A stretch of 64,000 bases of DNA, taken from the NCBI GenBank assembly GCA_021161465.1, contig JAGHAM010000023.1, forward strand, positions 8,895-72,894, written 5' to 3'. The notes under the pieces are model-generated. The model did not search any database. It was given only the letters and a program-made list of their open reading frames with translations, and had not been told where the DNA came from. The position numbers and the translations under genes are program-made. This document shows, in pieces, positions 16,758-63,960 of this stretch (positions are counted from its first letter, which is position 1; every line of letters begins with the position of its first letter). The stretch comes from Candidatus Iainarchaeum sp. (GTDB lineage: Archaea > B1Sed10-29 > WALL01 > JAGHAM01).

Positions 16758-16782
16758 TTGACTCGCGACTAGAACAGTAAAC

Positions 16783-16791: not shown

Positions 16792-16822
16792 ACCAATAAT
16801 GTAGTTTTGAGTAGGTGATTTC

Positions 16823-17296: not shown

Positions 17297-17313
17297 GTTT
17301 AGAAGGTAAATAG

Positions 17314-17442: not shown

Positions 17443-17539
17443 GGTACATGGAGCGTTGCAACCTGCGCCCAACTGCAAGTGGTTGGTAAAAGTAAAGTAT
17501 TTAAATGAAAACATTGTTATTTGCTCTAGAGGAGTTAGT

Positions 17540-17998: not shown

Positions 17999-18037
17999 TG
18001 ATAAACATTTATAGCCTAGTTGTTCGTTATTTTGAGT

Positions 18038-18592: not shown

Positions 18593-18715
18593 AGATTTAA
18601 CGACATACTGCTTTCTCACGTGACTAAACTTGGCCTCACCGGGTGACCCGAACAGGTTTGGATATGACTTCAAAATTTCAAAACTTTTATAACCTAGTTC
18701 CCCGTTATTTCTGTG

Positions 18716-19267: not shown

Positions 19268-19275
19268 GTGGATAT

Positions 19276-19950: not shown

Positions 19951-19959
19951 GGTAGAGAT

Positions 19960-20475: not shown

Positions 20476-21029
20476 AGGCACAGGCCGTAATCATTGATGC
20501 GTTCCTCCTGTTCATACTTTGCTCTTTTGCTGCAACTTTCCTTCTCTGGGCATCAAGTGTCTATGGGAACAAATCGCTAAGGGCCTACACTTACTTATAT
20601 GAGGGAGAATATGAAACAAGCCTGATAAATGTTCTCTCTGAGATGAAATACAACGTTAGCGATGTGCCAAGACATTGGATAGATGAAGTTGGGTATTATA
20701 TGAATGGAGAATTTGATGAAAGCAGCGATAGATACACCAACATGACAAAGTATTGGGATATCATATGCCTTCAGGCCCCTGTCCCATTGCAGCTTGAAGT
20801 CGTTACCAATACCAAAAATCCAAGTCATTCGAAAATGATTTTCAATTGTTCCCTTGACCCAACCAGGCTAGATAGGGAAAGAATAAACGAAAGTGTACAG
20901 GATTACATGACAAGAGATTGCAACCCTCCTGGAATTTGTAGACCTCCGCCGCCTTATTACTCCTCTGGGTCTGAAACTCGGTTATGCGGCGACCTAGTTT
21001 GCAAGATGGAGGCAAAGATTTATTATTAA
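20466..21029 (+). CDS. pilin-like protein (class III-like signal)
   Basis: MAVKAQAVIIDAFLLFILCSFAATFLLWASSVYG. GGTGGTGG SD upstream. Overlaps the previous gene by 10 nt. Confidence 0.45.
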   Translation: MAVKAQAVIIDAFLLFILCSFAATFLLWASSVYGNKSLRAYTYLYEGEYETSLINVLSEMKYNVSDVPRHWIDEVGYYMNGEFDESSDRYTNMTKYWDIICLQAPVPLQLEVVTNTKNPSHSKMIFNCSLDPTRLDRERINESVQDYMTRDCNPPGICRPPPPYYSSGSETRLCGDLVCKMEAKIYY

Positions 21030-21049
21030 GTTAAGTGTGAGAGAATACA

Positions 21050-21490
21050 ATGCTAATAGAGTCCTATTTAACTGCACTGCTCCTTTGTACTTCCTATGGA
21101 AAGCCAGCTTGTATGGGTGTCCTATCATTCATAACCTCCCTAATTGTTTTCGCGTTTGTAGCGCTAACCACACTATTTTTCAGGAGAAAAAACAAAGAAG
21201 CAAACTGGTTTGCTAAACTTATGTTAACGATAGTCTATTTCACTATAGTATGGATAGCCATATGCATATATTATGGAACAAGCCCCATGGAAGGTTTATC
21301 AATACCATTGAAATATGGATTTGGTGTGTTCTTTTTATTCGTCCTGCCGTTCTCATGGGTGTATAAAAAGCTGATGAACAAGTATCCTATGCTCCCATGG
21401 CATTTCGTCCAGTACCTATGTTGCCTGGTTGCCAGCCTAATCTTTTGGGCTGCCGTAATTTTCTACTTTGGTATCTTCTCACTCGTATGA
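21050..21490 (+). CDS. hypothetical 4-TM membrane protein within the pilus cluster
   Basis: 146 aa with four hydrophobic helices. No D..GGD-type prepilin peptidase motif recognised. Confidence 0.4.
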   Translation: MLIESYLTALLLCTSYGKPACMGVLSFITSLIVFAFVALTTLFFRRKNKEANWFAKLMLTIVYFTIVWIAICIYYGTSPMEGLSIPLKYGFGVFFLFVLPFSWVYKKLMNKYPMLPWHFVQYLCCLVASLIFWAAVIFYFGIFSLV

Positions 21491-31669: not shown

Positions 31670-31713
31670 AGGTCGCTACGAAAAAGGGTCTCTTGCATCT
31701 TTGCCAAGCAAAA

Positions 31714-31724
31714 CTTTAAATAAT
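31714..31724 (+). promoter_or_regulatory. TATA-box-like element (CTTTAAATAAT) about 21 nt upstream of the start of giant protein 2
   Basis: A/T box at the spacing expected for a leaderless archaeal transcript. Analogous boxes lie upstream of 9645, 11915, 18038, 18716, 23636 and 38849. Confidence 0.35.
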
Positions 31725-31744
31725 CCTATTTGGTATTCTAAATC

Positions 31745-37700: not shown

Positions 37701-38404
37701 TAGCTTCATGCGAAGCATTTAGGGTCTATAGCGACGGTTCAGTTACACCATTAAGCTGTGGGCGTATAGGTGATTCAGATAGATTCAGGTGCTCTGGTAT
37801 AGAAAAGCCGCCAGAAGGCCAGTACCACCAGTATCCATCAGAGTACTCAGGTGACTGCGGTTCGTACCACCTATCAAGTGATGGGAGGGCGTGTCTTGAC
37901 ATAATAAACTACACCTGCACAGACAAGAATGGGAATACCGCGGAGGATAGGCAGATAAAAATCTTCTGGGGAGAGAGTAGTATTGAGGTACATGTAAAAG
38001 AGATTTACTCCCAGCTTATCAACTTAGCTAATAATGGTGTGGTAGAATACGGAAAGGTGGAACCAATTGAGTCTGGTAAAGCTGTTGTATACAACACAAT
38101 AACCAAAAATGGAGATACTCAATCTGTACCTGTGTACTACACAAGTTCAACTGAAAACGTGATAAAGTTCAACATCACTGGGAAATTTGGCATTAGCGAC
38201 CTTAGTTGCGATGACGCACATATCATAGGGCCTAATAGCGATGAGCTCACTCCCTCACAAGACCACGACTCAGCACCAGGATGGAAAGACTATACACTAG
38301 ATTTCAACCTGGAAAGCGAAGGTGAGTATGTTGTGAATATAACTTGCATAGGAAATGGGAATTACGAGGATACGCCCTCTATGAAAGTGCCCGTAAAAGA
38401 ATAG
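31745..38404 (+). CDS. giant (2219 aa) N-terminally membrane-anchored surface protein, paralog 2
   Basis: N-terminus MALVDIYHQIEDNYYFFLDWLDEKGIPIYNVVDPIEAKGIPTFPLAVGMVLLILLLLLSL is clearly homologous to the N-terminus of the 23636 gene. It shares further internal motifs with it (W.PPKGN; ...PWC...L.NYD.(N/D)L). ACTTTAAATAAT box about 22 nt upstream. Confidence 0.75.
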   Translation: MALVDIYHQIEDNYYFFLDWLDEKGIPIYNVVDPIEAKGIPTFPLAVGMVLLILLLLLSLIIGMGTQANMNVNVTVTTNGNALADASVVAIQDGEEVSIKTTGDDGKVSLTIPKAETRINVTAEGCQSQEKEINESGNLSFELTCGGKPAGCIPISATISMVRLTGDDNKAPKNCHVTILDDKGDPTGIEWRVDGSKLYLPDPDKYCIKENYTVQISCTGYKLVDTGKNIMSEINGMGELELPSTTTPPEDKCALGEEWNETLGKCVEKPVTCPTGEKWDSTLEMCIPEQVDDEYSIYVIVKNNNTALSGILVTAISSSGSQLTEGTTQDYTDNAGKAELSLKKGQKFKIKAEDEAGKYSMVITKEYTADATKTINISMPKGSQTTIRVIDKETKESIPSATVLLYKGTEAYAAFTTDKNGKVGLTLPPGVTYTAYAYANGYKTDKGTIAAGSAITISLQKVYALEAGNLTLKAENALDGSSMEGVTFRIFSKIGNVPYGGCITGSDGKCAIYSLPEGSYSVYATPKGSYDEEDVGSVDVKHGETVEETIKIYPSTFKLTVYTWLNGGTPKRCASGAHVTIGTTNDIGVSTELNDSYTDNNDCKAEFHVYKGQDIWIKATYTDGGNILRASATYTVTGEKEINLILTQPTANVSFSMGALDMAPGDVKTGTLSFGLPYYDSDGTRYKNIEIKLWVGEEGDTTDAVKTPVMINGFEDSNMQGAAVYGYKNYPGTTIVSDTSGEYLKYLKFVISNSSAYYSNNINTSVNVPIKLKAKNAFEADQTIVHVRGKWTPPKGNPITADFDFRINLTAGTSWCMLPGGSDFSAFKAGFTITPDDNESHWEEHMSTTNGSEFYLNIRAIAAKQLDSYKINMKTQPSYGYSVLKLLQYFIGKNSPPTNYKDVNEDVSSSGMDLEPADASKGLGDLYQLNQDDEISLRIKLKAIHNATGTNWIKLFDDESCKKSFEIRDVTNKPTPLPNVTVEEHYFVQVCPPEGYTGTICRWGESDADKIDNQELELPTYSAVYGEGRNFSINLTFNNIGSTPANVHIEAVDSVGGISSLHTPADFTIQPNNQTEVNITGKGASAQAGTIKLYLSTSANGAKTLWRTIKYGPVDYNITLWANASISAGGNELKEELVKQIDSVKVVVFRNNNPTTGITNNGKVEFNYIDPVNGQTTKELRGVDNYYIFNHDAMSITAGDRSAEVHVEYGEFGGLTKGYPVQGMEVTPDGTRFPADGDYTLSVTNLRESKVVGVNSSWLRSANFTLDITGFDVDNAKNRGYDTMIQVFIYNSTNDLVNTITPDGVVNITLPAKGRADINVTVGLLENKISACIQEPFVGEIKVTPCYQDTKTYEFHYSCAELVRYQPANRKVEYIFTKDNTSYTESPAITVTSLANKNLNVLFGFEKYNSWLDTSFENFEINITTFYQNGAKKQTCSLNTEHDGTIKCELPPNGTAQVSIKASIDPDNPPEKGDLYISYLHITPDRWLEENFTLTFSYSETGEYISKYTVHRDTHEPLDITKEEVIDNDNVCWFGAGHYTLCDSTQLSKVIDVIGKHINANGGLLRKEFAFGNDIATISTIQTIAGSQVKETEDGASYGDIVVNILTRDKKITCGVVTITAQQVGGLTRVNITVDKNQPWCDNGEEPFLFTGLANYDEDLAESTGAPVKFMRFDGDATELSKFRDAFEYIDPDYIPVVFGYAYANGEVFDTGSENPPIVVHYKEYNCSGTPPEGTNDCIDLPSYLQFIYRDFYNNPDSPDGVGYFSYQYISTTETNNFFVGIAYKKAMDESELDELRRILASNLISYWTMGNTSCIQDNTGELIGENLNGKVCSMIGKLPRGEGAIDLKTFDPTNRGFKDSTGSDGKIGLNLTFGSGTVSCRIWNNCGSNTCKNETLIKGVNWDKDNTYVEVPDWTVPTDTGGGKQIKAECYSGGYKGTGDPVSAVVVVDKTAPTVSEDENCDSEPCFEEGDDHDLTFTATDKYGIASCEAFRVYSDGSVTPLSCGRIGDSDRFRCSGIEKPPEGQYHQYPSEYSGDCGSYHLSSDGRACLDIINYTCTDKNGNTAEDRQIKIFWGESSIEVHVKEIYSQLINLANNGVVEYGKVEPIESGKAVVYNTITKNGDTQSVPVYYTSSTENVIKFNITGKFGISDLSCDDAHIIGPNSDELTPSQDHDSAPGWKDYTLDFNLESEGEYVVNITCIGNGNYEDTPSMKVPVKE

Positions 38405-38848: not shown

Positions 38849-39175
38849 ATGAACCTTGGATTCCTTGGTGACATAAAAAACACCATAGACCTGTTATTCC
38901 TTGGATTTAAGGTCGTAGTTCTTGTATTCCTTGTAGGATGGGTTAGGGGCCACCTGGGCGGAGGGATAATCGCAACAGTTGCCATACTCATCATTGGATG
39001 GCTTGTGCTCTTCAAATACTTCTATTTATTTGGGCCAATGGCAGTAATTTACCTGATATTGATAGTTGGAGGTAGTGGTGTTATAATGGATATAGCCTTT
39101 GGTAGGTCCATGTACCTCGAGGAACCATACATAGGAAAGGATTTGATGGATGGAAGGAGGCCCCCACCAATATGA
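38849..39175 (+). CDS. small membrane protein (3 TM), array member 1
   Basis: 108 aa, very hydrophobic. A TTTTTTATATTTTT box sits about 25 nt upstream of the ATG. Confidence 0.45.
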   Translation: MNLGFLGDIKNTIDLLFLGFKVVVLVFLVGWVRGHLGGGIIATVAILIIGWLVLFKYFYLFGPMAVIYLILIVGGSGVIMDIAFGRSMYLEEPYIGKDLMDGRRPPPI

Positions 39176-39548
39176 AGGTGAAAACTTGAGAACAAGTGAG
39201 ATAAAACTAAACAAGAAAGGTTTTCTCCCGCTTATAGCTGGGATTCCAACAGCCTTGATAGTTTTGATAGTGGTAATACTCCTACTGGTGCTAAGCCCTG
39301 CTATCCTTATGCAAATTCGTGAAATAAAGCTGCTTTTCCAGATATTCGCTGCGATAATCATTCTCTCATGGGTCAGAAACACCGTTGGCCCTGGGATGGT
39401 ATCAATCCTGATAAGCTTAATCCTGATATATATCTTCGTCCTTATGGTCCCCGAACTTCTCGGCGCGATATGGGCAATGTACATCCTGTTGACATTCGGC
39501 TTGTGGTCAATGATATTCTGGGGTCTGCCTTTGATTTTCAGGAAGTGA
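39150..39548 (+). CDS. small membrane protein (about 4 TM), array member 2
   Basis: 132 aa. Overlaps the previous gene by 26 nt. The alternative internal start is uncertain. Confidence 0.4.
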   Translation: MEGGPHQYEGENLRTSEIKLNKKGFLPLIAGIPTALIVLIVVILLLVLSPAILMQIREIKLLFQIFAAIIILSWVRNTVGPGMVSILISLILIYIFVLMVPELLGAIWAMYILLTFGLWSMIFWGLPLIFRK

Positions 39549-39635
39549 TTAAAAATGAAGAGTATAATGTTGAGTGCCTGTCAGAAGAGCATAAAGTTAA
39601 ATAGCGGTATTGCAAAAAAATAACTTGGTGGATAG

Positions 39636-39878
39636 ATGGGAGACATAGTCAATGATTTGAGAGTGGCTCTGACACTAGTCGTACTTGTCTACCTTGCCCA
39701 GTGGGCCATCGCTGGCACGGGCTCCAGGAAAGTAGGGATAATAGTTGCACTGGTAATAGTGTACCTAACAGTCTGGCAACACCTCATGGTTCTTATCATC
39801 GTGATAGCATTCTTCTTCGGATACGCTTTCTTTGAAGCCTTTGAGAGCACGTTTATACCACTGGATCAGGGAGGTTGA
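39636..39878 (+). CDS. small membrane protein (2-3 TM), array member 3
   Basis: 80 aa: MGDIVNDLRVALTLVVLVYLAQWAIAG... Confidence 0.4.
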   Translation: MGDIVNDLRVALTLVVLVYLAQWAIAGTGSRKVGIIVALVIVYLTVWQHLMVLIIVIAFFFGYAFFEAFESTFIPLDQGG

Positions 39879-39879
39879 A

Positions 39880-40176
39880 ATGGACACTTTTACTCTCGTA
39901 GTATTCCTGATTCTGATAATAATAGCCATACAGGCTAAAGTCTATGCAATAGCGCTGCTCCTAATGGCATTCCTCTTGTTCACCCTTAAGTCAAGAACTA
40001 TGATATTGATTGCAATAGTGGCTGGAGTTATAGGGTTCTTCTTAAACTATTCGTTCAATGTGGAGTTGCAGGTAATAATGATATTGATTGTGGTCCTGCT
40101 CCTTGCTGGTGCCATGCTCACTTCAAGGAGTGAGGGACCTGGCTCATATACGCCAAGTGCCTTTGGGGTGTTTTGA
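39880..40176 (+). CDS. small hairpin membrane protein, MDT/SAFG family member 1
   Basis: ATG 39880 is preceded by GGAGGT. N-terminal MDTFTLVVFLILIII, two TM helices, C-terminal ...GPGSYTPSAFGVF. The ORF-track start at 39832 is probably too long. Confidence 0.5.
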   Translation: MDTFTLVVFLILIIIAIQAKVYAIALLLMAFLLFTLKSRTMILIAIVAGVIGFFLNYSFNVELQVIMILIVVLLLAGAMLTSRSEGPGSYTPSAFGVF

Positions 40177-40517
40177 TGGATACTCTGACCCTTTTGCTGC
40201 TGTCACTGATAGTTATCGTTGGATTCTACACTGAATGGTGGGTTGCACTGATTGGGGTAGTCCTTCTGGTCGCGTATATTTATGGTGCAAGAGAGGGGAC
40301 ACACGCGCCAGCACCTGCTGGTGGGGTCAAGGTGCGACCAATAATCGTACAAAGGCGTTACGTTGGTCCTGAATCAATATACCCAAGAGTGATGAAGATG
40401 AGAATCAGGCCTGACTGGGATACCAGACCGTGGTTTGAACAGGCATCCGGGGCATTTGGGCGCTTAATGGGATGGGCAACCAACGCTGGCAAACCAAGCA
40501 GCAAGAGTGAAGACTGA
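40176..40517 (+). CDS. small hairpin membrane protein, MDT/SAFG family member 2
   Basis: MDTLTLLLLSLIVIV, two TM helices, PAPAGGVKVRPIIVQ, C-terminal ...ASGAFGRLMGW. The ATG overlaps the previous stop (TGATG). Confidence 0.5.
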   Translation: MDTLTLLLLSLIVIVGFYTEWWVALIGVVLLVAYIYGAREGTHAPAPAGGVKVRPIIVQRRYVGPESIYPRVMKMRIRPDWDTRPWFEQASGAFGRLMGWATNAGKPSSKSED

Positions 40518-40573
40518 CAAACCATCAACATTTTTGCAGAAGATTTAAATAATTGAACTCCGATATTTTAATG

Positions 40574-40948
40574 ATGGACAGGCCAATAGGGTTAATGGTA
40601 ATAGTTATAATACTATCAGTTGTGACTAAAGTTTACTGGCTGGCCATACTAGTTGGTATAGCAGCATTACTGGTGGCTATAGCCAGCATTGAGATAAAAC
40701 GACCAAGTCCAGTCCCATCTGGCGGCAAAGAAGAAGAGATATTAACACCTGTGATAGTTCAGGATGTTGGGGAACCGCCGTACCTTTACCCGCCAAACTT
40801 TGACTTGAAGTTAAAACCCAATGAATCGCTCATGCCATTGTATGATATAGCTGCTGGTTCATTTGGCAAGCTGTTCAGAGCAATTTATCGAACCGCCCGC
40901 GGGGACAGCCTCAGGAACTTGTCCCCAAAGAAGGTGAAGTGGAGGTAA
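40574..40948 (+). CDS. small hairpin membrane protein, MDT/SAFG family member 3
   Basis: MDRPIGLMVIVIIL, two TM helices, PSGGKEEEILTPVIVQ, ...AAGSFGKLFRAI. Confidence 0.45.
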   Translation: MDRPIGLMVIVIILSVVTKVYWLAILVGIAALLVAIASIEIKRPSPVPSGGKEEEILTPVIVQDVGEPPYLYPPNFDLKLKPNESLMPLYDIAAGSFGKLFRAIYRTARGDSLRNLSPKKVKWR

Positions 40949-40952
40949 TGAC

Positions 40953-41318
40953 GTGGATACTGACCAGCTGCTGCTGTTGCTTGTAGTTTGCGCAGGGGCT
41001 TACCTCGCTGGATACCGCGGCCTTGCAATTGGCCTTGCCATAATCACAGGGCTAGTAGCTCTGGCTGGTGGCACAAAAAAGAGCAGAAAGTATCAAACGG
41101 TCGCTATTGGCGGCGTAAATGTGCGTGGTGCGGAAATGCTTGAGCCCATAATCATTGAAAGCACTAGGGGTGCCCCATTTAGGATACCCTCAGACATGGA
41201 CATGAGGATAAATCCCAAGTGGAGTGCGACTAACCTTATAGAAAAGGCAACACAGAAGGGGCTTGCTCCGTTCGCCAGGCTTATACACAGGATGTTTTAC
41301 AGGGGGAAGTCACAATGA
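40953..41318 (+). CDS. small hairpin membrane protein, MDT/SAFG family member 4
   Basis: GTG start preceded by GGAGGT. MDTDQLLLLLVVCAG, two TM helices, GGVNVRGAEMLEPIIIE, ...GLAPFARLIHRMF. Confidence 0.45.
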   Translation: MDTDQLLLLLVVCAGAYLAGYRGLAIGLAIITGLVALAGGTKKSRKYQTVAIGGVNVRGAEMLEPIIIESTRGAPFRIPSDMDMRINPKWSATNLIEKATQKGLAPFARLIHRMFYRGKSQ

Positions 41319-41749
41319 ACGCACTGATATTTGTAATAGCGCTGCTGGTAATAGGCGCGGTCTTTGGGTCTCCCTGGCTTGCTTTGATTAGCATTGGCGC
41401 AGTTTTCCTGACAGCAATAGCATTAGTAATCGAGAGAGCTGAACAACAGGCAGCCCCAGCAGGTGGGACTGGTAGAAAGCACAAGATAATACAAGCGTCC
41501 ATGGATGACTGGGACAACGATGACACCATGACATATATGATGGCCATGTCAGGCTCAAAGCCGATATCCTTAAAATCCCCTGAGGACCCAATGAAAGCCG
41601 TAACTAGTGCTTTTGGTGCAAAAGGAAAGATACCAGCCAGTGTCGTCAGAAATGTCCTGCCTTTCAGCAACTATGGCAGGGATTCTACGTTTGAGCACGT
41701 ATTCATTGGCCTTCCAGTCAGTATTGGCAAGTTGATATCAAAAAAATAG
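41315..41749 (+). CDS. small hairpin membrane protein, MDT/SAFG family member 5
   Basis: MNALIFVIALLVIG, two TM helices, AAPAGGTGRKHKIIQ, ...VTSAFGAKGKIP. Overlaps the previous gene by 4 nt. Confidence 0.45.
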   Translation: MNALIFVIALLVIGAVFGSPWLALISIGAVFLTAIALVIERAEQQAAPAGGTGRKHKIIQASMDDWDNDDTMTYMMAMSGSKPISLKSPEDPMKAVTSAFGAKGKIPASVVRNVLPFSNYGRDSTFEHVFIGLPVSIGKLISKK

Positions 41750-41757
41750 GTGAGAAA

Positions 41758-42411
41758 ATGAAAATTAGCAATTTTATCGTTGTTTGCGCACTCCTGACAA
41801 TGATGCCACTGGCCTCTACACAGGTCATAACGCCAGAAGATATACAAAAAGAAACTGGCTGTCAGGTCTATGACACTTACTGGCTATGCCCACAGACCAT
41901 CGTCCTGGAAAATATTCCATTAAAGTATACAACTAACTTAGTTTGCTATGAACTAGACAATGAAAGTTATGGTTGCTATGGCAATGCAATCTTGTTATCA
42001 GACGCGCACTACCAAGAGTGCCAGATTTATATCCCACTACTTGCAGGGAACGAGGTCGACTACACTAAGATGCAATATAACTACAACTGCCATGATAGGA
42101 AATGGAAGAGTGGTTCAACTGTCGAGCTACTCACATACCCTGACTTGTTAAATGGAATAGATTGCCATACCACTGAAAGCAATGACTCGTACTCTGAGAA
42201 AGCATGTAAAGCTAAAGGCCAAGCCATAGTGGCAAACGCTACAATTGACGAGGAAAACGGAACAAAATACCTAATCGTTATGAGCTCAAAGCCACAGACT
42301 GGTATTATTCCAAATCTACAGAATGGTATCGTTCTGGAGACATGGCAGTGGGTTGCCATTGCATTGTTTGTACTGGTTTTGGTGTGGATGTACCTAAAAA
42401 GGAGAAAATAG
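41758..42411 (+). CDS. secreted cysteine-rich protein with C-terminal TM anchor and basic tail
   Basis: Signal peptide MKISNFIVVCALLTMMPLASTQ, 10 Cys, C-terminal ETWQWVAIALFVLVLVWMYLKRRK. Confidence 0.55.
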   Translation: MKISNFIVVCALLTMMPLASTQVITPEDIQKETGCQVYDTYWLCPQTIVLENIPLKYTTNLVCYELDNESYGCYGNAILLSDAHYQECQIYIPLLAGNEVDYTKMQYNYNCHDRKWKSGSTVELLTYPDLLNGIDCHTTESNDSYSEKACKAKGQAIVANATIDEENGTKYLIVMSSKPQTGIIPNLQNGIVLETWQWVAIALFVLVLVWMYLKRRK

Positions 42412-42873
42412 CTACTTGGTATCGAGCCGTGTGAGCATTTTCTTGTTGATTTTGATTAAATCCTCGTTAAGCCTTTTTATTGAGGCGACCAGCGGTTTAA
42501 TCTCATCAACCTCTCTCTTTAAATCAGCCAATTCTTCCCTGATAGCCTTGGTATCCTCTCCAGTAGTTACGTTTTTCTCATGTATCTCGTTTAGATGGGC
42601 GTGTATCCTCTCAAAGTGCTCCCCATGTTCACCAAGCTTCTCCATGGCAGGCTTTAGGTGCTCACCGCTCTCAAGGAGCTTCACCGCCTGGTCTGCCTTC
42701 TCACTAACATCTGCTACAGTGGTCTCGGGATTCGCCGCTGCAATTATGTCTTCTATATCCTCATCGTTCAATCCCATCTGCTTCAGGTTTGAAACTATTT
42801 CTGTTTTGGTAACGCCTTGGGCATTCATCTCTTTTACTATCCCTACTATACGATTGAAGACAGATTTTTCCAT
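42412..42873 (-). CDS. hypothetical coiled-coil protein
   Basis: 153 aa, charged and helical, no identifiable motif. Confidence 0.4.
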   Translation of the reverse strand: MEKSVFNRIVGIVKEMNAQGVTKTEIVSNLKQMGLNDEDIEDIIAAANPETTVADVSEKADQAVKLLESGEHLKPAMEKLGEHGEHFERIHAHLNEIHEKNVTTGEDTKAIREELADLKREVDEIKPLVASIKRLNEDLIKINKKMLTRLDTK

Positions 42874-42988
42874 ATCTAAACCTCAAAGTATTTAAAGCAC
42901 GATGTAATAAAAGACAGATAACAGCTATATAAAGGATTAGGGTGGTCCAACGAAAACTCTTGAACTTCCTCATGGCCCTTGGAGAGAA

Positions 42989-44401
42989 GTGCTATCTGGA
43001 ATCTGGGATGAGAAGGAAGTCGCTTATTATGAGAATCCGGAGAAACGCATACTCATAGTTATATATGACAAGAAAGGGGATGAAATTGCCGGTGTTGTAA
43101 CACTGATGGCAAAGTTTTTCCTAGTTGAAGGAAATGCGACAGAACTTGCTTACTCTCTGGACAACACAATCCTCATCCAAAAAAGGACACCTTTATTTAA
43201 GGGTTCATTCATTGGGGTAGTCACGGACCCTACATACATAGAATATACACCAAGGAACTTGATTAATGAAACCGCTGAACTGTATAACAAACTTGACGAG
43301 AGAAACGCGGAAATCATGAGGAAAACTGGTGACTATAACATCAGCCTGATTTCGCTTGAATTTGCAGGTGACAAAACTAAGGAGCTATTCGGCGAGCCGC
43401 TTGCACTTCCAGCCATGGTTGTCAGGAAACCTGGTCCCAAGACTGTGATGGAAACGCCCGTGGGCAATGTAGTGCTTGGTATAGACTTAAAAGGCGAAAC
43501 AGTAAAGGAAGACATGAAGTCGTTTGCAGTTACAATCATAAGCGGCGACAAAACAAGGCTTATAACACATCTGATAGTCGAGGGTTTCATATTGAACGGC
43601 ACACCAAGCTTGATTTTTGATGGAAAGAACGAATTCACGCATCTCGATGAGCCAAACAGGCAGGCAACCGACCTGCAGAGCTATGACCCTGAGCTGGAGC
43701 CATTAAGCCTCCCTTTGAGAAGGTTTGTGCCTGGAAGTGATGTGTTTGTAAACTTAGATTCACTTAATGAAAAATTATTCGCAAACATAGCAGGGATAAA
43801 ACAAGGGAAAGAAACCGAGTTAGTGAGTGAAGTGCTCTCAAAAAAAGACATCAAGTCGCTTGGTGAACTGGCTACAAAACTAGAGGAGTTTACAAGCGAA
43901 GATGATAAATACTATGCAGCCAGAGCGATAAGAATATGCAAACTTCTTGATGAAACCTATCCAGGAGTATTCAACGGTGCGGTTGAGCCCAACGAGCTAC
44001 TCGCCCCATGGATGAAAAGGATTGGGAGAGTCGCCCTCATAGACCTCAGTGGTATCGACAAGAGGATTGCTAAGGGTATAATTTATTCTGTGCTGACTAT
44101 CTTATACAAAAAGTTAAAGGAGGAATCATCCGGTGATGAAACGCGGATAGTGGTCGCTCTTGAGGACCGTGGTGGAGATGGAGAATACATTGATAAAGAG
44201 ACAAATGCCCTGATAAAGCTTTGCTCCTCCTATGGGATGGGGATATGCCTCAGAACGCCATCAGAAAGTAATGTTGACACGGACCTGTTCACGAATGCAA
44301 CTGCTAGAGTAAAATGCATAAATGAAAAAGAAGTGTCAGTGCACCTCCAAACAAAAAACCCGTATAGGGTGAAGCTTAGGCCTCCATTAAGTGCAGAATA
44401 A
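42989..44401 (+). CDS. hypothetical protein, possibly a degenerate P-loop/HerA-like fold
   Basis: 470 aa. Contains segments resembling ATPase cores (IISGDKTRLITHLIVEGF; GRVALIDLSGIDKRIAKG; RIVVALEDRGGDGE) but no intact GxxxxGK[ST]. Confidence 0.35.
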   Translation: MLSGIWDEKEVAYYENPEKRILIVIYDKKGDEIAGVVTLMAKFFLVEGNATELAYSLDNTILIQKRTPLFKGSFIGVVTDPTYIEYTPRNLINETAELYNKLDERNAEIMRKTGDYNISLISLEFAGDKTKELFGEPLALPAMVVRKPGPKTVMETPVGNVVLGIDLKGETVKEDMKSFAVTIISGDKTRLITHLIVEGFILNGTPSLIFDGKNEFTHLDEPNRQATDLQSYDPELEPLSLPLRRFVPGSDVFVNLDSLNEKLFANIAGIKQGKETELVSEVLSKKDIKSLGELATKLEEFTSEDDKYYAARAIRICKLLDETYPGVFNGAVEPNELLAPWMKRIGRVALIDLSGIDKRIAKGIIYSVLTILYKKLKEESSGDETRIVVALEDRGGDGEYIDKETNALIKLCSSYGMGICLRTPSESNVDTDLFTNATARVKCINEKEVSVHLQTKNPYRVKLRPPLSAE

Positions 44402-44403
44402 GT

Positions 44404-44892
44404 TTATAGTCTCGGCTTTTTTCCAGAGAGGACATTATTTACCTTCTTGTCTATGACCTCATTAAGCTCATCTATCGTGACGTATTCCAGTGGGTTAATG
44501 CTATCCAAAGTATATTTCAGCTCATCCACCTGTTGTTTCAGGTTAACCATAGTCTTCTTTAAGTCAGAGATCTCGCCGGTTAGCTGTGTTACAACTTCTG
44601 GAGCCGCCTGCACGACCTTTTGGTTTTCCGGCTTCTGCTTGCTTAGCTCGGCAATTATCTCCGCCTTAAGCTCTTCTTTCATGGTGCTGGATGCAGCAGG
44701 ACCTTTCATCTCTATCTCCTTCAACTTCTTGTTGTGGGACACGAGCGTCCTGCCTATGACCTGCTCATTCATCTCTATAATTTTAAGCCTCTGTGCCAGG
44801 AGCTTCATTTTTGCGTCTAAGGTGCTTATTGCACTCTCGATATCGCGCAACCCTATCGTTGCTTTCTCCCGTGTAATTCTCCTAGAAGGCAA
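44404..44892 (-). CDS. hypothetical coiled-coil protein
   Basis: 162 aa with heptad-like K/E/L periodicity. Confidence 0.4.
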   Translation of the reverse strand: MPSRRITREKATIGLRDIESAISTLDAKMKLLAQRLKIIEMNEQVIGRTLVSHNKKLKEIEMKGPAASSTMKEELKAEIIAELSKQKPENQKVVQAAPEVVTQLTGEISDLKKTMVNLKQQVDELKYTLDSINPLEYVTIDELNEVIDKKVNNVLSGKKPRL

Positions 44893-44958
44893 TCAACCAC
44901 CATTAAATAAGACTTTAACTCAATTAAGTATGTTTCAATATAAAAGCCTTGTGATACC

Positions 44959-47250
44959 ATGAAAGGCGTCTTAATTGATGTGGAGAGCGATAACCACATT
45001 ATAAAACTCTTCATAAAGGATACCGAAACAGGGAAAGTTGAAGAGGTAGTGGATAGCTCGTTCTACCCTTATTTCTACCTGCTTGGAGTGGATGAGGAAG
45101 ATGCAAAAAGCCTTGGGGAAGGGCTGAGAGGAATTGAGAGGAGCAAGGGCGCCCTGAAGATAATCGCTGAAAAGCCATCTGATGTTCCATACCTGAGGGA
45201 AAAAGCAAAAGAGATTGGTGAGATACGGGAATATGACATACCATATACTCAGAGGTATCTCATAGACAAAGGTCTGAAGCCCATGAAGCGCTACGAATGG
45301 GTTCTTGATGGGAACAAGCTCATCTCCTTTAAAGAGGATGTAGGTAAGTGGTCTGTAAGCAGGAAAGCTTTTGACATAGAAACCTATAACCCCCAAGGCA
45401 TGCCAAGGCCGTCACAAGACCCTGTTATAATGGCTTCCTTCTGGAATGAGGAACTGGGGAAGGTCATCACATGGAAGCCAGCAAAGGCTAGCTTCGTTGA
45501 GATGGTTGAAGACGAGAAGCGGCTTATAGCCAGGATAACTGAAGAGATAAACTCGGCAGATGTAATTTATACTTATAATGGAGACAACTTTGACCTGCCC
45601 TACATAAAGAAACGCGCTGACAACTATAAGATACCAACAGCCATAGACTTAAGGCGCGGGGGGCAAGGCACAAAAGCCAAGATAAGAGGAAAAATCCACT
45701 TAGATGCCTATCTTGGCGTTAATTTCCTAACAACTATAGGCTGGCTAAAGCTGCCGAGGTACAGACTGGAAGATGTATACAAGGAGTTCACTGGAAAAGA
45801 AAAGCTAGATATGGAGGTAACGGACCTTTGGAAGGACTGGGAGAACGGCACTATAGACAAGGTGACTGACTACTCGCTCCAGGATGCCGAGGCCGCATAT
45901 GTCATAGGCGAGAGACTGCTTCCCCTGTATGTGGAGTTCTGCAAACTCGTTGGGCAAACCATGTTTGATGTTTCAAGAATGAGCGCCTCCCAGATTGTTG
46001 AGCTGTTGCTACTGAAGAAAGCATTCCACAAGAAACAGATAGCCCCAAACAAGCCGACAGAACACGAGTTCGTATCGAGGATAAGAAAGCCAATAAAAGG
46101 GGCGTTCGTGAAGCAGCCCGAACCCGGGCTTCACGAGAACTTAGCCATCCTTGACTTCAGGTCTCTGTATCCCTCCATTATAATAAGCCATAATGTAAGC
46201 CCTGAAACCCTCAACTGCGAGTGCTGCAAAGATGATGGATATGTATCGCCAAACGGTTACCGTTTCTGCAAGAAAAAACGTGGCATAATTCCTGAGATGC
46301 TTGAGGAACTGTTAAGCAAGAGAGTTGAAGTGAAAAAACTGCTTAAGTCAACCAAGGACCCCGAAGAGAGGAAAAGGCTGGACGCAAAACAACAGGCTTT
46401 GAAGATAACAGCAAACGCCACTTATGGATACACACTGTTTGCAAGAGCGCGCTGGTATTGCAGAGAATGTGGTGAGGCCATAACAGCATGGGGAAGGCAC
46501 TACGTCCAGAACCTAATATCCCAGGCCGAAGAAACTGGGTTTAAAGTGCTTTACGCCGACACGGATTCCTGCTTCCTTGAGCTAAGGGATAAGACCAAAG
46601 AAGATGTGATTAAATTCCTCAAGGACTACAACAGCAAGCTACCGGAGGCCATGGAACTCGAGCTTGAAGGCTTTTACCCCAGAGGGATTTTTGTAACTAA
46701 GCGCGAGGGAGGGGCAGCCAAGAAGAGATACGCCCTTATACGCGAAGACGGGCAGGTAGAGATAACCGGGCTTGAGTTTGTTAGGAGGGATTGGAGTGGG
46801 CTTGCCAAAAAAACCCAGGAGAAAGTCATAAGGGCCATACTCGAGAACAAGATTGGAAAGGCCAAAGAGGTAGTTATGGACACGATAGATGCAATCAGGG
46901 AAGGAAAAGTGCCACTGGATGACCTAGTGATATACACGCAAATTAAGCGGAAGATAAGCAAATATGACGCTATTGGCCCCCATGTCAAAGCAGCAAAACG
47001 GCTTGAGGAAAGCGGAGTTAAAGTAGAGCCTGGTATGACGATAGGATATGTAGTGACGCAGGGAGCAGGCAATATAGGTGACAGGAGTTATCCTCCTCAG
47101 TTGATTGGAAACAGGAAACCAGATGTAGACTACTACATAAACAACCAGGTGCTACCCGCAGTTATGAAGATACTGTCAGAAGTAGGGATAAAAGAAGATG
47201 ATTTAAAGATAGGTGGGAAGCAAAGCGACCTTGGCCAATGGGTTGGCTAA
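44959..47250 (+). CDS. polB: family B DNA polymerase
   Basis: Exo I FDIETYN, Exo II YNGDNFDLPY, Exo III YSLQDAEAAY. Pol motif A DFRSLYPSIIISHN, motif B KITANATYGY, motif C YADTDS. 763 aa with no intein-sized insertions. Confidence 0.95.
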   Translation: MKGVLIDVESDNHIIKLFIKDTETGKVEEVVDSSFYPYFYLLGVDEEDAKSLGEGLRGIERSKGALKIIAEKPSDVPYLREKAKEIGEIREYDIPYTQRYLIDKGLKPMKRYEWVLDGNKLISFKEDVGKWSVSRKAFDIETYNPQGMPRPSQDPVIMASFWNEELGKVITWKPAKASFVEMVEDEKRLIARITEEINSADVIYTYNGDNFDLPYIKKRADNYKIPTAIDLRRGGQGTKAKIRGKIHLDAYLGVNFLTTIGWLKLPRYRLEDVYKEFTGKEKLDMEVTDLWKDWENGTIDKVTDYSLQDAEAAYVIGERLLPLYVEFCKLVGQTMFDVSRMSASQIVELLLLKKAFHKKQIAPNKPTEHEFVSRIRKPIKGAFVKQPEPGLHENLAILDFRSLYPSIIISHNVSPETLNCECCKDDGYVSPNGYRFCKKKRGIIPEMLEELLSKRVEVKKLLKSTKDPEERKRLDAKQQALKITANATYGYTLFARARWYCRECGEAITAWGRHYVQNLISQAEETGFKVLYADTDSCFLELRDKTKEDVIKFLKDYNSKLPEAMELELEGFYPRGIFVTKREGGAAKKRYALIREDGQVEITGLEFVRRDWSGLAKKTQEKVIRAILENKIGKAKEVVMDTIDAIREGKVPLDDLVIYTQIKRKISKYDAIGPHVKAAKRLEESGVKVEPGMTIGYVVTQGAGNIGDRSYPPQLIGNRKPDVDYYINNQVLPAVMKILSEVGIKEDDLKIGGKQSDLGQWVG

Positions 47251-48914: not shown

Positions 48915-49239
48915 CGGACCCGGAGGGAATTCCACTCGCAAAGGAGAAGGGCTTATAAGGAACACATAACGCCCTTACTGCTTTCCATCCCATTAAGGGA
49001 AGGGGCTGATAAGGGGGAACCGTAGGTGCCCCTTATTTTGAACCCCCGATCTTCTGGTTTCTCCCCCTCTCATTAAGAGAGGTACTAGAACCATAAGTTC
49101 TGATACCATCACCCAAAGGACGCGCTAAGGGAGGACTGGAACACAAATTCCAATCCTACCTTAAATCCAAGGGATGTATCGGAACCGTAGGTTCTGATGT
49201 CCGAAGCCAGATGCCTTATCCTAGCTAGGCTACGGGCCC
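48915..49239 (-). tRNA. tRNA-Arg (anticodon TCG) with long anticodon-loop intron and T-loop intron (about 325 nt)
   Basis: Minus strand: GGGCCCG-TA-GCCT-AGCTAGGATA-AGGC-A-TCTGG-CTTCGG(A)-[about 140-nt intron]-CCAGA-AGATC-GGGGG-TTCAAAA-[about 110-nt intron]-CCCTC-CGGGTCC-G. All stems are complementary, with GU pairs. Confidence 0.45.
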
Positions 49240-54423: not shown

Positions 54424-54690
54424 AGCCCCGTAGTGTAGTGGACAATCATATCGGACTCTGGACATCAGAACCTACGGTTCCGATACCTCCCTTAAGGTTT
54501 TAAGGTAGGGTTGGTTCCGATACCTCCCTTGACGGTAGATAAAGTATATCTCCTGTGATGGGGGTGTAGAAGCAGTTGTTCTGGAGTAACTCTGGAACTC
54601 TTGATGCCTCTCTCAATTGATGAGAGAAATCCGATGACAGCGGTTCGAAAGAAGGGTTTTACCCCATCAACGAAATTCCGCTCGGGGCTA
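54424..54690 (+). tRNA. tRNA-Gln (anticodon CTG) with roughly 167-nt anticodon-loop intron and roughly 26-nt T-loop intron
   Basis: AGCCCCG-TA-GTGT-...-TCGGA-CTCTGG(A)-[intron 54463..54629]-TCCGA-TGAC-AGCGG-TTCGAAA-[intron]-CCGCT-CGGGGCT-A. The acceptor, anticodon and T stems are all complementary. Confidence 0.5.
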
Positions 54691-54695
54691 TTAGT

Positions 54696-54877
54696 GGACC
54701 CGTGGTCTAGTCTGGTTTAGGACATCAGCTTCACAGATTCCGTCGGCGCGCAGGGCAAAGCACGAGAACGATGGAATTGAGAGCGCTGGGGATCCCCGGT
54801 TCAAAAAAAGGAAGGGAGACACATTCCCCCTCCCCTTATAAGCCCTCCTCCTTTGGAGGTGAACATCCGGGCGGGTC
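54696..54877 (+). tRNA. tRNA-Val (anticodon CAC) with anticodon-loop intron (about 48 nt) and T-loop intron (about 60 nt)
   Basis: GGACCCG-TG-GTCT-AGTCTGGTTTA-GGAC-A-TCAGC-TTCACA(G)-[ATTCC...GGAATTGAGAGC]-GCTGG-GGATC-CCCGG-TTCAAAA-[intron carrying the GGGAGACACATTCCCCCTCCCC hairpin]-CCGGG-CGGGTCC-A. It starts only 5 nt after tRNA-Gln. Confidence 0.5.
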
Positions 54878-54985
54878 CACTATAGGAGTTACAACTCTGC
54901 TACCATTACATGGGGGGATAATTGACATATACTATATCAGGGGTAACAGGAAATCTTAAATTCACTGCAAAAGATAAAAACTTCA

Positions 54986-60665: not shown

Positions 60666-60956
60666 GCTCCCGTAGTCTAGTCCGGTTAACCACGAACCGC
60701 AAAATCCGTTCATGCTTTGTGTGATTGCTACGCAATCACACTGTTGGCAGGACGTAGCTGCTCTCTGGGAACAATCCCTTGCAGTAGCAATTTGTGGTAC
60801 GGAAAAGGATAAGGGCCTCTCGAGGCTTTCCTTGATATCTAAGGAAAGCCAAGGAAAGCCCTAGACCCGGGTTCAAAATAAGGGAGGGGGACACATTCCC
60901 CCTCCCCTTATAAGCCCTTCCCCTTTGGAAGAGCATGAACAGTCCCGGCGGGAGCA
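60666..60956 (+). tRNA. tRNA-Glu (anticodon CTC) with three introns (D-loop, anticodon loop, T-loop; about 291 nt)
   Basis: GCTCCCG-TA-GTCT-AGTCCGGTT-[about 140-nt insertion]-GGAT-A-AGGGC-CTCTCG-[intron GGCTTTCCTTGATATCTAAGGAAAGCC...]-(A)GCCCT-AGAC-CCGGG-TTCAAAA-[intron with the GGGAGGGGGACACATTCCCCCTCCCC hairpin]-CCCGG-CGGGAGC-A. The D-region parse is the least certain. Confidence 0.4.
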
Positions 60957-61063
60957 CTAGGGGGGTTTCACCCCCTCTACCCCCTTATAGGGATAGAATA
61001 TCACCTGTATCCTGATTGCTAGAAAGAGTGTAGCTGGTTCTCTTCGTAACGCTGAAAGCAGCC

Positions 61064-62182
61064 TCAAATCATCTTCTTTAAGAGTCCAGTCAAAGTTTCT
61101 TCTGTCAGCTCGCGCGGGTTGTTTTTAAGCGAGCTACTGTATGAGCTCTCTCCGATTAGCAAGGGGATATCCTTCTCAGCAACACCAACCTCACTGAAGC
61201 AAGTCTTCAATCCCAACACCTCAGCCAGCTTCTTCAAGTTCCTTATACCACCTTCTATCGAGGACGCACCACTCGCCCTGGCTATGGCCAGGACTTTCTC
61301 AGGGGCTGCCTCTTTGTTGTAATCCATTAATGCGGGCAGGGGTATCAAACAGCCATTCCCATGTGTTATTCCAAAGTGCGCGGTGACGGCGTGTGAAATG
61401 GGATGTGCTGCTGTAACACCCGCAAGATTTATAGCAATCCCAGCAAGCATACTGGCGAAGCTCATATTGGTTCTTGCCTCTAGGTCATTGGGGTTCCTAT
61501 AAGCTTTTTCAAGATTCTGAAATACCAGCTCTATTGCCCTAAGCGAAAACATCTCGCTCATTGGACTGCTCTTCTTGGACCAGTAGGATTCTATTGCATG
61601 TGCCAGCGCATCGACACCTGAGTTAGCCGTGACCTTTGGTGGCATTGTAAGCGTCAGCTTTGGGTCAATAATTGAGACATCTGGATAAATCGACTCATGA
61701 TGAAATCCCCTCTTCCAGTGCCTTTCGTTGTCAGAGATGACAGCAAAACGGTTAGCTTCGCTCCCAGTGCCAGAGGTAGTAGGTATGGCTATCAGCGGGA
61801 GGGATGGCTTACTTGGCTCTTTCCCGTCAAAAACATAATCATAACAACTGCCACCGTTAGCTGCAACTAAAGCAATCATCTTGGCAGTATCCATCGCACT
61901 TCCCCCACCAAGACCAATCACGAGCTCACAGCGGTTCTCATCTAGGAGCTCCACCCCCTTATCAACCGTCTGGTACGATGGGTTCTCTTCAGCTCTGTCA
62001 AACACAACAACATTGGCATCCAGCATATCAACAATCCTGTCAATTACTCCAGCCTTTTTCATCGCGTGCCTACCAGTCACCAGAAGGATTTTCCCATCCC
62101 CAACATATTTTGAAAGCTCATCAAGAGCATCCACGCCGAAGACAAGTTTAGCTGGCATATAATACGACCACATATACCCCAC
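61064..62182 (-). CDS. iron-containing (class III) alcohol dehydrogenase family oxidoreductase
   Basis: GGGSAMDTAK NAD-binding motif, and metal-binding DALAHAIESY and HPISHAVTAHFGITHG motifs. 372 aa. Confidence 0.75.
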   Translation of the reverse strand: MGYMWSYYMPAKLVFGVDALDELSKYVGDGKILLVTGRHAMKKAGVIDRIVDMLDANVVVFDRAEENPSYQTVDKGVELLDENRCELVIGLGGGSAMDTAKMIALVAANGGSCYDYVFDGKEPSKPSLPLIAIPTTSGTGSEANRFAVISDNERHWKRGFHHESIYPDVSIIDPKLTLTMPPKVTANSGVDALAHAIESYWSKKSSPMSEMFSLRAIELVFQNLEKAYRNPNDLEARTNMSFASMLAGIAINLAGVTAAHPISHAVTAHFGITHGNGCLIPLPALMDYNKEAAPEKVLAIARASGASSIEGGIRNLKKLAEVLGLKTCFSEVGVAEKDIPLLIGESSYSSSLKNNPRELTEETLTGLLKKMI

Positions 62183-63085: not shown

Positions 63086-63535
63086 ATGACAGACCAGATA
63101 GAATTCTTCGCGCAGTATGGCAAATGGGTTGCAGTGAAAAAGCTGAAAATTGAAAACCAATCAAAGGCAGAAGTAGCGCGCTTCCTAGCAAGCGTGCACG
63201 AGAGCATAGATAGGAAAATGTGGGAGTTCCTTGATGAGGATATCCCATTAGGGGCTTTGGACGAGATAGCTGTTGAGATAACCGGGGCAACTAGAAAAGG
63301 CAAGAAATGGGTAACGCCGCGATTGAATGAGGAAAGGACTATCGAAATCATGGCAAGGCTAAGGAGCACGGGAACCACGAGAAAAATAAAACAACACGTT
63401 AAAAGCAAAGAACTGGTTGAGCTCGCGAAAATTTACCTAACCAGGCGCGCGCTTGAGATGATTGGGGTCAACCTGGAGCCAGACCCAAAGGTTATTGAGA
63501 AGTATACAACCAAAAAAGAACTTGGTGAAGTTTAG
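63086..63535 (+). CDS. hypothetical protein
   Basis: 149 aa, soluble, no recognisable motif. Confidence 0.4.
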   Translation: MTDQIEFFAQYGKWVAVKKLKIENQSKAEVARFLASVHESIDRKMWEFLDEDIPLGALDEIAVEITGATRKGKKWVTPRLNEERTIEIMARLRSTGTTRKIKQHVKSKELVELAKIYLTRRALEMIGVNLEPDPKVIEKYTTKKELGEV

Positions 63536-63675
63536 CCCCCTAACTCTGACAACCACAACTCCCTAAGTTCCTTCGTTTGCACAAAACCGTCTAGGACCTT
63601 ACCAACTATTGCTCGAGTGGCATTTATAAATCTTAGAAAGCAATTTAAAAGTTAAATGTAAAAGTATAGACGCAC

Positions 63676-63801
63676 GGGGTCGTAGGGTAGCCTGGACCAT
63701 CCTACGGGCTTTGGGAGTCTTTTCTGGACGCGCGGGTCAAGCCTGAGCAATGGAAAAGGCAAAAACAGCCTGTGACCGGAGTTCAAATCTCCGCGACCCC
63801 A
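63676..63801 (+). tRNA. tRNA-Gln (anticodon TTG) with about 53-nt canonical anticodon-loop intron
   Basis: GGGGTCG-TA-GGGT-AGCCTGGACC-ATCC-T-ACGGG-CTTTGG-[intron 63715..63767]-(G)CCTGT-GAC-CGGAG-TTCAAAT-CTCCG-CGACCCC-A. The cloverleaf is fully complementary. Confidence 0.75.
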
Positions 63802-63804
63802 CCT

Positions 63805-63956
63805 AAACTTCTTTGGGAAAGAAGTTTAATCAAGAAAAAGAAGGAAACTTCTTTGGGAAAGAAGTTTAATCAAGAAAAAGAAGGAAACTTCTTAGGAAGA
63901 AGTTTAATCCAGAAGGAAGGAAACTTCTGGAAAGGAAGTTTAATCAAGGAATCCAA
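63805..63956. repeat. four tandem copies of a roughly 40-nt unit containing the palindrome AAACTTCTTTGGGAAAGAAGTTT
   Basis: Units start at 63805, 63845, 63885 and 63921 (the last two are degenerate). There are no unique spacers between them. Confidence 0.8.
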
Positions 63957-63960
63957 ATCC

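Follow-up and report, generated by a model that had tools for sequence, protein, structure and literature searches.

A tRNA-Glu(CTC) gene with three predicted introns, and related introns in other tRNA genes, in a Candidatus Diapherotrites genome

Archaeal tRNA genes can be interrupted at the canonical position 37/38 and at non-canonical positions including 20/21 and 59/60, and tRNAs with three introns have been described (PMC4090602, PMC4033280). In the Thermoproteales, as outlined in PMC4033280 and PMC4090602 from the work of Sugahara et al. (2007, 2008), tRNA genes carry up to three bulge-helix-bulge (BHB) introns at 37/38 and at non-canonical sites, with relaxed HBh' and hBH motifs, and ordinary tRNA finders miss such genes. 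The same two papers report the 'intron transposition' of Fujishima et al. (2010, Mol Biol Evol 27:2233) in this group, in which similar introns occupy unrelated tRNAs by a mechanism given there as unknown. In Methanopyrus kandleri, pre-tRNA-Glu(UUC) contains a D-loop intron of the HBh' type together with a 37/38 intron (Kaneta et al. 2018, PMC5829648), and removal was shown in that case to need a broad-specificity endonuclease (PMC5829648). Disrupted tRNAs are also known in the DPANN superphylum, where ARMAN-2 has an epsilon2 EndA (Fujishima et al. 2011, PMC3239211) and an alpha4 EndA with an L3 loop has been described (PMC5829648); L3-loop DPANN endonucleases are linked to more tRNA disruption, and unidentified disrupted tRNA genes have been suspected in DPANN (PMC5829648). 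Here we describe a tRNA-Glu(CTC) gene at 60666–60956 (plus strand) of a 64,000-nucleotide stretch of contig JAGHAM010000023.1 (Candidatus Iainarchaeum sp.), the whole of which we call the window. Judging from sequence, we consider it about 85% probable that this locus encodes a functional tRNA-Glu(CUC) of a DPANN (Candidatus Diapherotrites) archaeon, with three enzyme-spliced archaeal introns of which the T-loop intron belongs to a spreading, lineage-specific family.

This pattern has been seen before in other archaea and does not amount to a new kind of system. It resembles that of the Thermoproteales in the features listed above, but the host is a DPANN archaeon (Diapherotrites) with ~44% G+C and not a crenarchaeote, and the introns reach 117–167 nt and are built of tandem modules. 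M. kandleri pre-tRNA-Glu(UUC), which shares the combination of D-loop and 37/38 introns, has two introns rather than three, and neither a T-loop intron nor an intron family is reported for it (PMC5829648). The disrupted tRNA genes of other DPANN archaea come from the same superphylum, but the survey that describes them includes no Diapherotrites genome (PMC5829648), and in the literature searched we identified no paper on the tRNA introns of Diapherotrites.

Excision of three inserts of 117, 34 and 65 nt from the window locus leaves a 75-nt sequence that ARAGORN accepts as tRNA-Glu(ctc) with a normal cloverleaf. The unspliced 291-nt RNA has a predicted folding energy of -132 kcal/mol (z = -8.45; 0/200 shuffles are as stable), and in its minimum-energy fold the acceptor, D, anticodon and T stems are all formed and the three inserts make up side domains; the stability of this fold, together with the exon identity described below, excludes chance. 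A putative TATA-like promoter box lies upstream (see the table), and an AT-rich box, GATTTAAATAA, is found at a comparable distance in the ortholog L009.

Two orthologous loci are especially informative. L009, the lone metagenome contig matched by a scan with the intron core, is syntenic with the window and has the same upstream open reading frame (ORF) and downstream alcohol dehydrogenase (ADH) gene. All 75 exon bases are identical between L009 and the window, against 65–74% identity in the flanking coding DNA, and the L009 gene has introns at the same three sites, with lengths of 16, 20 and 135 nt. The L009 T-loop intron (its positions 929–1063) is strongly conserved relative to its counterpart in the window (60878–60942), while introns 1 and 2 have diverged: 64 of the 65 bases of intron 3 match, apart from a 70-nt module insertion in L009. 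This degree of identity suggests either constraint on the sequence itself, for instance through a function of the excised RNA, or a recent event of homogenisation or transfer.

The second locus, L017, is a more distant ortholog found through the upstream ORF (62% amino-acid identity). Its tRNA-Glu is without the D-loop and anticodon introns and reads GUCU-AGUCAGGUUAA-GGAU-A-AAAGC-CUCUCGA-GCUUU, collinear with the joined exons of the window, and its anticodon stem (AAAGC/GCUUU, as against AGGGC/GCCCU in the window) differs by two compensatory pairs. We note that this gene (L017 1739–1820), also a tRNA-Glu(CTC), is without the 59/60 intron as well, and that an insertion (GTTTCCCACGCGGAAACG...) begins within its 3' T stem after C62, at the contig end; this may be another non-canonical intron site. 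Comparison with L009 and L017 settles the parse of the D region, with GGAU as the 3' D stem, and provides a strong argument against a pseudogene.

The initial annotation of this DNA had proposed a tRNA-Glu(CTC) gene with three introns, and the ARAGORN result, the stems kept in the fold and the agreement of the two orthologs all uphold that proposal. The complementary stems that it quoted (acceptor GCTCCCG/CGGGAGC, T stem CCGGG/CCCGG and anticodon stem AGGGC/GCCCT) are all found in the sequence. Its estimate of roughly 140 nt for the D-loop insertion needs correction to 117 nt, and the choice that it left between GGAC and GGAT as the 3' D stem falls to GGAT, since the two orthologs place the GGAC at ~60751 within the intron and so rule it out.

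Splicing of the tRNA-Glu introns by the archaeal endonuclease is predicted from a relaxed BHB motif at each junction. In the geometry used here, exon positions n-5 to n-2 pair with intron positions -6 to -3, and the bulges are n-1,n↓i1 and i-2,i-1↓n+1 (the arrow marks the junction). In every intron an intron helix abuts the 5' bulge, and the central helix has 3/4, 3/4 and 4/4 pairs in introns 1 to 3 respectively. The D-loop intron, intron 1, has the central helix CCGG/ACGG, bulges UU↓A and AA↓A, a weak outer helix and a directly adjoining 5-bp intron helix, ACCAC/GUGGU. Folded alone it reaches -48.4 kcal/mol (z = -5.4), its joint is uncertain by 1–2 nt because of A runs, and no second copy of it occurs within the window or the related loci. 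Intron 2 has the central helix CUCU/AAGG, bulges CG↓A and AA↓A, and a 10-bp intron helix (GGCUUUCCUU/AAGGAAAGCC) that adjoins both bulges.

Intron 3 has a more elaborate order, consisting of a GC hairpin (60878–60912), the conserved CCUUAUAAGCCC, a second hairpin (60914–60934), UGAA (60936–60939) and CAG. The 3' UGAA pairs at all four positions with U54–A57 (UUCA) to form the central helix, the 5' bulge is AA↓A, and the outer helix is provided by the T stem. The GC hairpin, which begins with the second base of the intron, thus makes up the intron-side helix (h') of the splice motif. The same arrangement extends beyond this gene. In 8/8 T-loop introns, from five genomes, the 3' end of the intron pairs with positions 54–57, and position 57 covaries with its partner, being A57-U in four and G57-C in the other four. 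Likewise, in the family of Arg and Gln anticodon introns described below, the central helix covaries with the anticodon loop of the host.

Several details weigh against the reading of this locus as a functional gene with three spliced introns. The central helix of intron 1 contains a G.A mismatch, and the minimum-energy fold favours a register one base away (UCCG/CGGA), with which the D loop would have 9–10 nt, where L017 has 11 nt. We reject the 9-nt register in favour of 11 nt, as L017, intronless at this site, and L009, in which the helix is a clean CGGU/GCCG, both give AGUCNGGUUAA. The 3' bulge of intron 3 is 4 nt long (UGAA-CAG↓U); it is the same in L009, where the extra G is conserved. 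Measured strictly from its central helix, intron 3 would leave an 8-nt T loop; a cut at CAG↓U would give the mature T loop UUCAAAU, and a cut at CA↓GU would give UUCAAAGU. The related hairpin in tRNA-Val has two uncompensated mismatches, and the hairpin as such is thus not strongly maintained. No EndA or RtcB ligase was found among the ~39 of 51 window ORFs scanned with Pfam, which is not unexpected for 64 kb. Finally, a second intact copy of tRNA-Glu(CUC) may be present elsewhere in the genome.

Intron 3 belongs to a family of T-loop introns that we call family A. The 36-nt element that drew attention to it occurs exactly at 60882–60917 and recurs at 54810–54845 with two mismatches (0 expected in shuffles), the latter copy lying in the T-loop intron of tRNA-Val(CAC). 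The near-identity of these two introns, remarked on at the outset, is confirmed and spans the whole intron: local alignments give 92% over 60 nt and 91% over 64 nt, and global alignment 83%, for introns hosted by mature tRNAs that are 71% identical. A further copy, at 48939–48960 (a 22-nt match, 95%), had been described as a similar element in reverse orientation at about 48930–48960. A similar element is indeed present there, but it lies in the T-loop intron of a minus-strand tRNA-Arg(TCG), so that both its orientation and its position are the same relative to the host tRNA. The Arg intron, which consists of two tandem family A modules, has both ends in common with the Glu and Val T-loop introns. 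In L009, the Glu T-loop intron comprises three modules, and the middle one is identical at 24/24 positions to the variant in window tRNA-Val.

A shorter T-loop intron (GAAAGGGGUUUCACCCC...), family B, is found in window tRNA-Gln, L014 tRNA-Val and the tRNA-Arg of L011 and L016. The shared T-loop introns are always at 59/60, in Glu, Val and Arg of the window (with the shorter relative in Gln), in Glu of L009, in Val of L014, and in Arg of L011 and L016. The family A core, searched against 185,579 species genomes, has no archaeal match and eight bacterial matches that look like chance, and a scan of viral contigs with both intron cores found no match. The families resemble the transposed introns of Fujishima et al. 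(2010), as these are summarised in the later papers cited above, in that the introns are more alike than the tRNA bodies, their distribution varies and the splice motif is kept. Measured against those summaries, the families differ in that their sequences are new and lineage-specific, and in that one related element sits outside introns, in the 3' trailer of tRNA-Glu. This trailer element is 27/31 identical to the L014 tRNA-Val T-loop intron and ~83% conserved, and it is present in one copy in the window and in two tandem copies in L009 (1078–1190). We note that CCCCTTATAGGG sits between its GC hairpin and its second hairpin. The trailer element may act as a processing signal or a terminator, or may be the remnant of an element.

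Other identities for the introns were considered. A search for the signature of C/D box small RNAs (C box RUGAUGA, D box CUGA) found neither a C box nor a C/D pair in any of them, and, with no Rfam match either, we reject the notion of a C/D-box guide RNA within the introns. Group I, group II and homing-endonuclease introns are likewise rejected, as the tRNA-Glu introns measure just 34–117 nt and match nothing in Rfam even at E<=10, and as in intron 1 no start codon opens an ORF, although three of its six frames are stop-free over the 117 nt.

The tRNA-Glu gene is not alone in its architecture. Four further tRNA genes were found by a scan for acceptor and T arms followed by reading of the sequence, and all five tRNA genes of the window carry introns and pass ARAGORN once spliced, with three introns in Glu (D loop, 37/38 and 59/60), two each in Arg, Gln and Val, and one in Pro. 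In the raw 64-kb window neither ARAGORN nor Rfam (at gathering thresholds and at E<=10) finds a tRNA, the only matches being a chance small nucleolar RNA match and a false transfer-messenger RNA (tmRNA); the latter, called by ARAGORN with a tag peptide at 63464–63803, is a miscall over the intron-bearing tRNA-Pro(UGG) and is discarded. The coordinates of these genes and of the parts of tRNA-Glu are collected in the table.

The Arg and Gln anticodon introns form a second family, with 91% identity over 55 nt in host tRNAs that are 67% identical when mature. The Gln intron has a perfect hBHBh' motif, and both introns are strongly structured (z = -5.6 for Arg). We note that both of these long introns (142 and 167 nt) contain internal repeats of GAACC-UAC-GGUUC-CGAUACNUCCCUU (for example, 54476–54493 equals 54513–54530), and that in relatives the introns are 43–52 nt long and hold a single repeat unit; the long forms appear to have grown by internal duplication. 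The Gln T-loop intron is family B-like. The genes for tRNA-Gln and tRNA-Val are separated by just 5 nt (54690–54696) with no promoter-like box between them, and are therefore probably one transcript with four introns. Beyond tRNA-Pro, from 63805–63958 onward to the end of the window, there is a tandem array of two exact 40-nt units and degenerate units of 36–40 nt, each containing the hairpin AAACTTCTTT-GGG-AAAGAAGTTT. A single copy of this hairpin follows tRNA-Pro in the distant relative L010 (~3515–3545, minus strand). On this comparison we interpret it as a conserved trailer hairpin, amplified in the window.

Table. Coordinates in the window of the tRNA-Glu(CTC) gene, its parts and the other intron-bearing tRNA genes.
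Feature	Coordinates	Strand	Remarks
TATA-like box TTTTTAAA	60633..60640	+	26-33 nt 5' of the first tRNA base; putative archaeal promoter
tRNA-Glu exon 1: acceptor 5' strand, D stem 5' strand, D loop to U20a	60666..60687	+	Same in L009; collinear with L017
tRNA-Glu intron 1, D loop, 117 nt	60688..60804	+	Relaxed BHB, HBh' type
tRNA-Glu exon 2: D-loop end, 3' D stem GGAU, A26, anticodon stem 5' strand, loop through G37, CUC	60805..60822	+	Identical in L009
tRNA-Glu intron 2, canonical 37/38, 34 nt	60823..60856	+	Relaxed BHB
tRNA-Glu exon 3: A38, anticodon stem 3' strand, variable loop AGAC, T stem 5' strand, U54-A59	60857..60877	+	
tRNA-Glu intron 3, T loop 59/60, 65 nt, family A	60878..60942	+	Shared with tRNA-Val; conserved in L009
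tRNA-Glu exon 4: U60, T stem 3' strand, acceptor 3' strand, discriminator A	60943..60956	+	CCA not encoded
3' trailer element of tRNA-Glu	60957..61012	+	GC hairpin GGGGGGUUUCACCCCC, then CCCCUUAUAGGG, then second hairpin
tRNA-Arg(UCG)	49239-48915	-	Anticodon intron 49200-49059 (142 nt); T-loop intron 49036-48929 (108 nt)
tRNA-Gln(CUG)	54424..54690	+	Anticodon intron 54462-54628 (167 nt); T-loop intron 54650-54676 (27 nt)
tRNA-Val(CAC)	54696..54879	+	Anticodon intron 54736-54783 (48 nt, clean BHB); T-loop intron 54806-54865 (60 nt)
tRNA-Pro(UGG)	63676..63801	+	One 51-nt intron at 37/38, 63716-63766; ortholog in L010

Syntenic loci of relatives, obtained through homologs of MetAP (67–74% amino-acid identity), reveal that the introns are distributed unevenly. 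The Arg, Gln, Val and Glu orthologs in L009, L011, L012, L014, L016 and L017 differ in the introns that they carry. All six Arg orthologs carry the anticodon intron; the window, L011 and L016 also carry the Arg T-loop intron, which L012 and L014 lack. tRNA-Gln is intronless in L012 and L014 and has the Arg-type anticodon intron alone in L016, such that the Gln anticodon intron occurs in two of four genomes; tRNA-Val has the anticodon intron alone in L012 and a T-loop intron alone in L014. Such a pattern results either from repeated gain or transfer between tRNA genes or from repeated precise loss, and the genomes at hand do not separate these.

If the locus were a decaying tRNA pseudogene that has accumulated insertions, with the working tRNA-Glu(CUC) encoded elsewhere, its escape from ARAGORN and Rfam, the irregular 4-nt 3' bulge of intron 3 and the imperfect central helix of intron 1 would be readily accommodated. 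We regard this as highly improbable, given that the exons are wholly conserved in L009 amid flanks of 65–74% identity while the introns differ greatly in length, that the anticodon stem of L017 has changed in a compensatory manner, that a promoter-like box is kept, that every insert lies at a splice-competent site with adjoining helices, and that the same architecture in all five tRNA genes of the 64 kb makes it the norm for this genome. The initial annotation likened the 36-nt hairpin element to a miniature inverted-repeat transposable element (MITE), in which case a DNA transposon would be inserting into T-loop DNA and its removal by splicing would be incidental. Like MITEs, the element is short, hairpin-forming, multi-copy and patchy between relatives; near-identical copies occupy different tRNA genes, module number varies from one to three, and a related element lies outside introns in the tRNA-Glu trailer, once in the window and twice in L009. 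However, the insert (AUAAGG...GAACAG, flanked by UUCAAA and U) has neither a target-site duplication nor bounding terminal inverted repeats, its palindrome is internal (60878–60912), and no candidate for a transposase came to light. In motif and BLAST scans of the window and seven related loci (~136 kb), copies turn up solely in tRNA introns and the tRNA-Glu trailer, with none dispersed, and the homology spans the whole intron including the splice-docking 3' UGAA. The covariation of the central helix with host sequence points, moreover, to selection for splicing. We therefore reject the MITE label, also in view of the mismatches in the Val hairpin and of a hairpin that is a helix of the splice motif rather than a transposon end, and consider a DNA transposon of this kind very unlikely. 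What survives of the proposed mobile element targeting tRNA T-loops is a family common to several tRNA T loops at 59/60 and patchy among orthologs, and the weaker statement that we retain is that this is a spreading, tRNA-associated intron family.

Two further explanations accept the introns as such and account differently for their likeness. The shared introns may be old, with their similarity kept by gene conversion or concerted evolution and their patchiness produced by repeated precise loss. The Arg anticodon intron family, found in all six Arg orthologs, is ancestral there; loss seems easy, given the intron-free versions in L017 and in L012 and L014; the middle module of the L009 Glu intron, identical at 24/24 positions to the window Val variant, makes a mosaic such as conversion produces; and the conserved T-arm flanks (GGUUCAAA...U) give a short stretch of homology. 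Yet those homologous flanks are just ~8–10 nt long, and the match of the Gln anticodon intron (in two of four genomes) to the Arg intron is more simply a gain from Arg. With so few genomes gain and loss are indistinguishable, and we view an ancient origin as possible and on the whole doubtful. The other explanation has the T-loop intron, and with it the trailer element, giving rise to a functional small or circular RNA; conservation would then reflect what the excised RNA does and not splicing alone. Consistent with this, intron 3 retains its 64/65 identity with L009 despite the divergence of the flanks and of introns 1 and 2, the trailer element is ~83% conserved, and window Glu, window Val and L009 Glu share a 28-nt core, ACACAUUCCCCCUCCCCUUAUAAGCCCU, without a difference, although the opposite arm of the hairpin has mutated in Val. 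On the other side, the introns have no C/D boxes, Rfam match or coding capacity, the family B introns of relatives differ in sequence, module number varies freely, and recent homogenisation explains the conservation equally well; a retained RNA function thus seems quite unlikely.

For the preferred interpretation, a functional tRNA-Glu with three spliced introns, the following sequence of events is envisaged. A precursor of ~291 nt would be transcribed from the putative TATA-like promoter, its junctions would fold into relaxed BHB motifs, and, by analogy with established archaeal biology, EndA would cut in both bulges and an RtcB-type ligase would join the exons. The T-loop intron would bring its own docking sequence, the 3' UGAA forming a 4-bp central helix with the near-universal U54–A57, with the T stem serving as outer helix and the GC hairpin as intron-side helix. 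As almost every tRNA offers this docking target, such an intron could occupy any T loop and still be removable. The family, lineage-specific and composed of one to three tandem modules of ~45–55 nt, would have spread among Glu, Val and Arg (with a shorter relative in Gln), with rapid gain and loss between related genomes, and the second family would have spread likewise at the anticodon-loop site of Arg and Gln. Candidate routes are exchange between tRNA genes, by recombination or gene conversion, and reverse splicing with subsequent reverse transcription. A bolder proposal, which we offer tentatively and think unlikely as it stands, is that the ~45–55-nt module of GC hairpin and CCUUAUAAGCCC is an independently mobile element at the RNA level that carries its own splice guide in the 3' UGAA, enters T loops at 59/60, stacks in tandem within introns already there, lands at tRNA 3' ends and is still active in this lineage; continuing activity is suggested by the 64/65 identity between species with flanking coding DNA of 65–74% identity, the mosaic of Glu and Val modules and the copy number of one to three.

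The surroundings of the gene are in keeping with its assignment to the Diapherotrites. The iron-containing ADH encoded next to tRNA-Glu (61064–62182, minus strand) is 100% identical to MCD6414660.1 from a Candidatus Diapherotrites metagenome-assembled genome (MAG), other window proteins have their best matches in MAGs of Diapherotrites, Micrarchaeota and other DPANN, and the archaeal markers deoxyhypusine synthase and PAC2 are present. An origin in the Thermoproteales, which the intron pattern and G+C might suggest, is rejected on account of the ADH match and of these DPANN best matches. We also note that the stretches 16272–21490 and 39026–44962, together with 23636–38404, hold runs of small ORFs (114–224 aa) without Pfam matches as well as two giant ORFs (2677 and 2219 aa); the block of small ORFs is syntenic in L012, L014 and L016. 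The family B DNA polymerases of L014 (6142–9729), L015 (2023–5610) and L016 (5790–9389) contain a LAGLIDADG intein (~1195 aa), which is absent from the 758-aa polymerase of L012 and apparently from its putative counterpart in the window, a syntenic 763-aa ORF (44959–47250).

These observations extend multi-intron tRNAs and look-alike intron families from the Thermoproteales to a lineage of Diapherotrites. The five tRNA genes of the window are invisible to ARAGORN and to the Rfam tRNA model, one being miscalled as a tmRNA, and it follows that automated annotation of DPANN genomes like this one will under-count tRNAs; such under-counts feed into claims of reduced translation capacity and into estimates of genome completeness. 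The syntenic orthologs, which vary in intron presence, length and module number, are close snapshots of the gain and loss of archaeal tRNA introns, and, should the module prove to be mobile at the RNA level, the clade would be a tractable natural system for the mechanism by which archaeal tRNA introns are gained.

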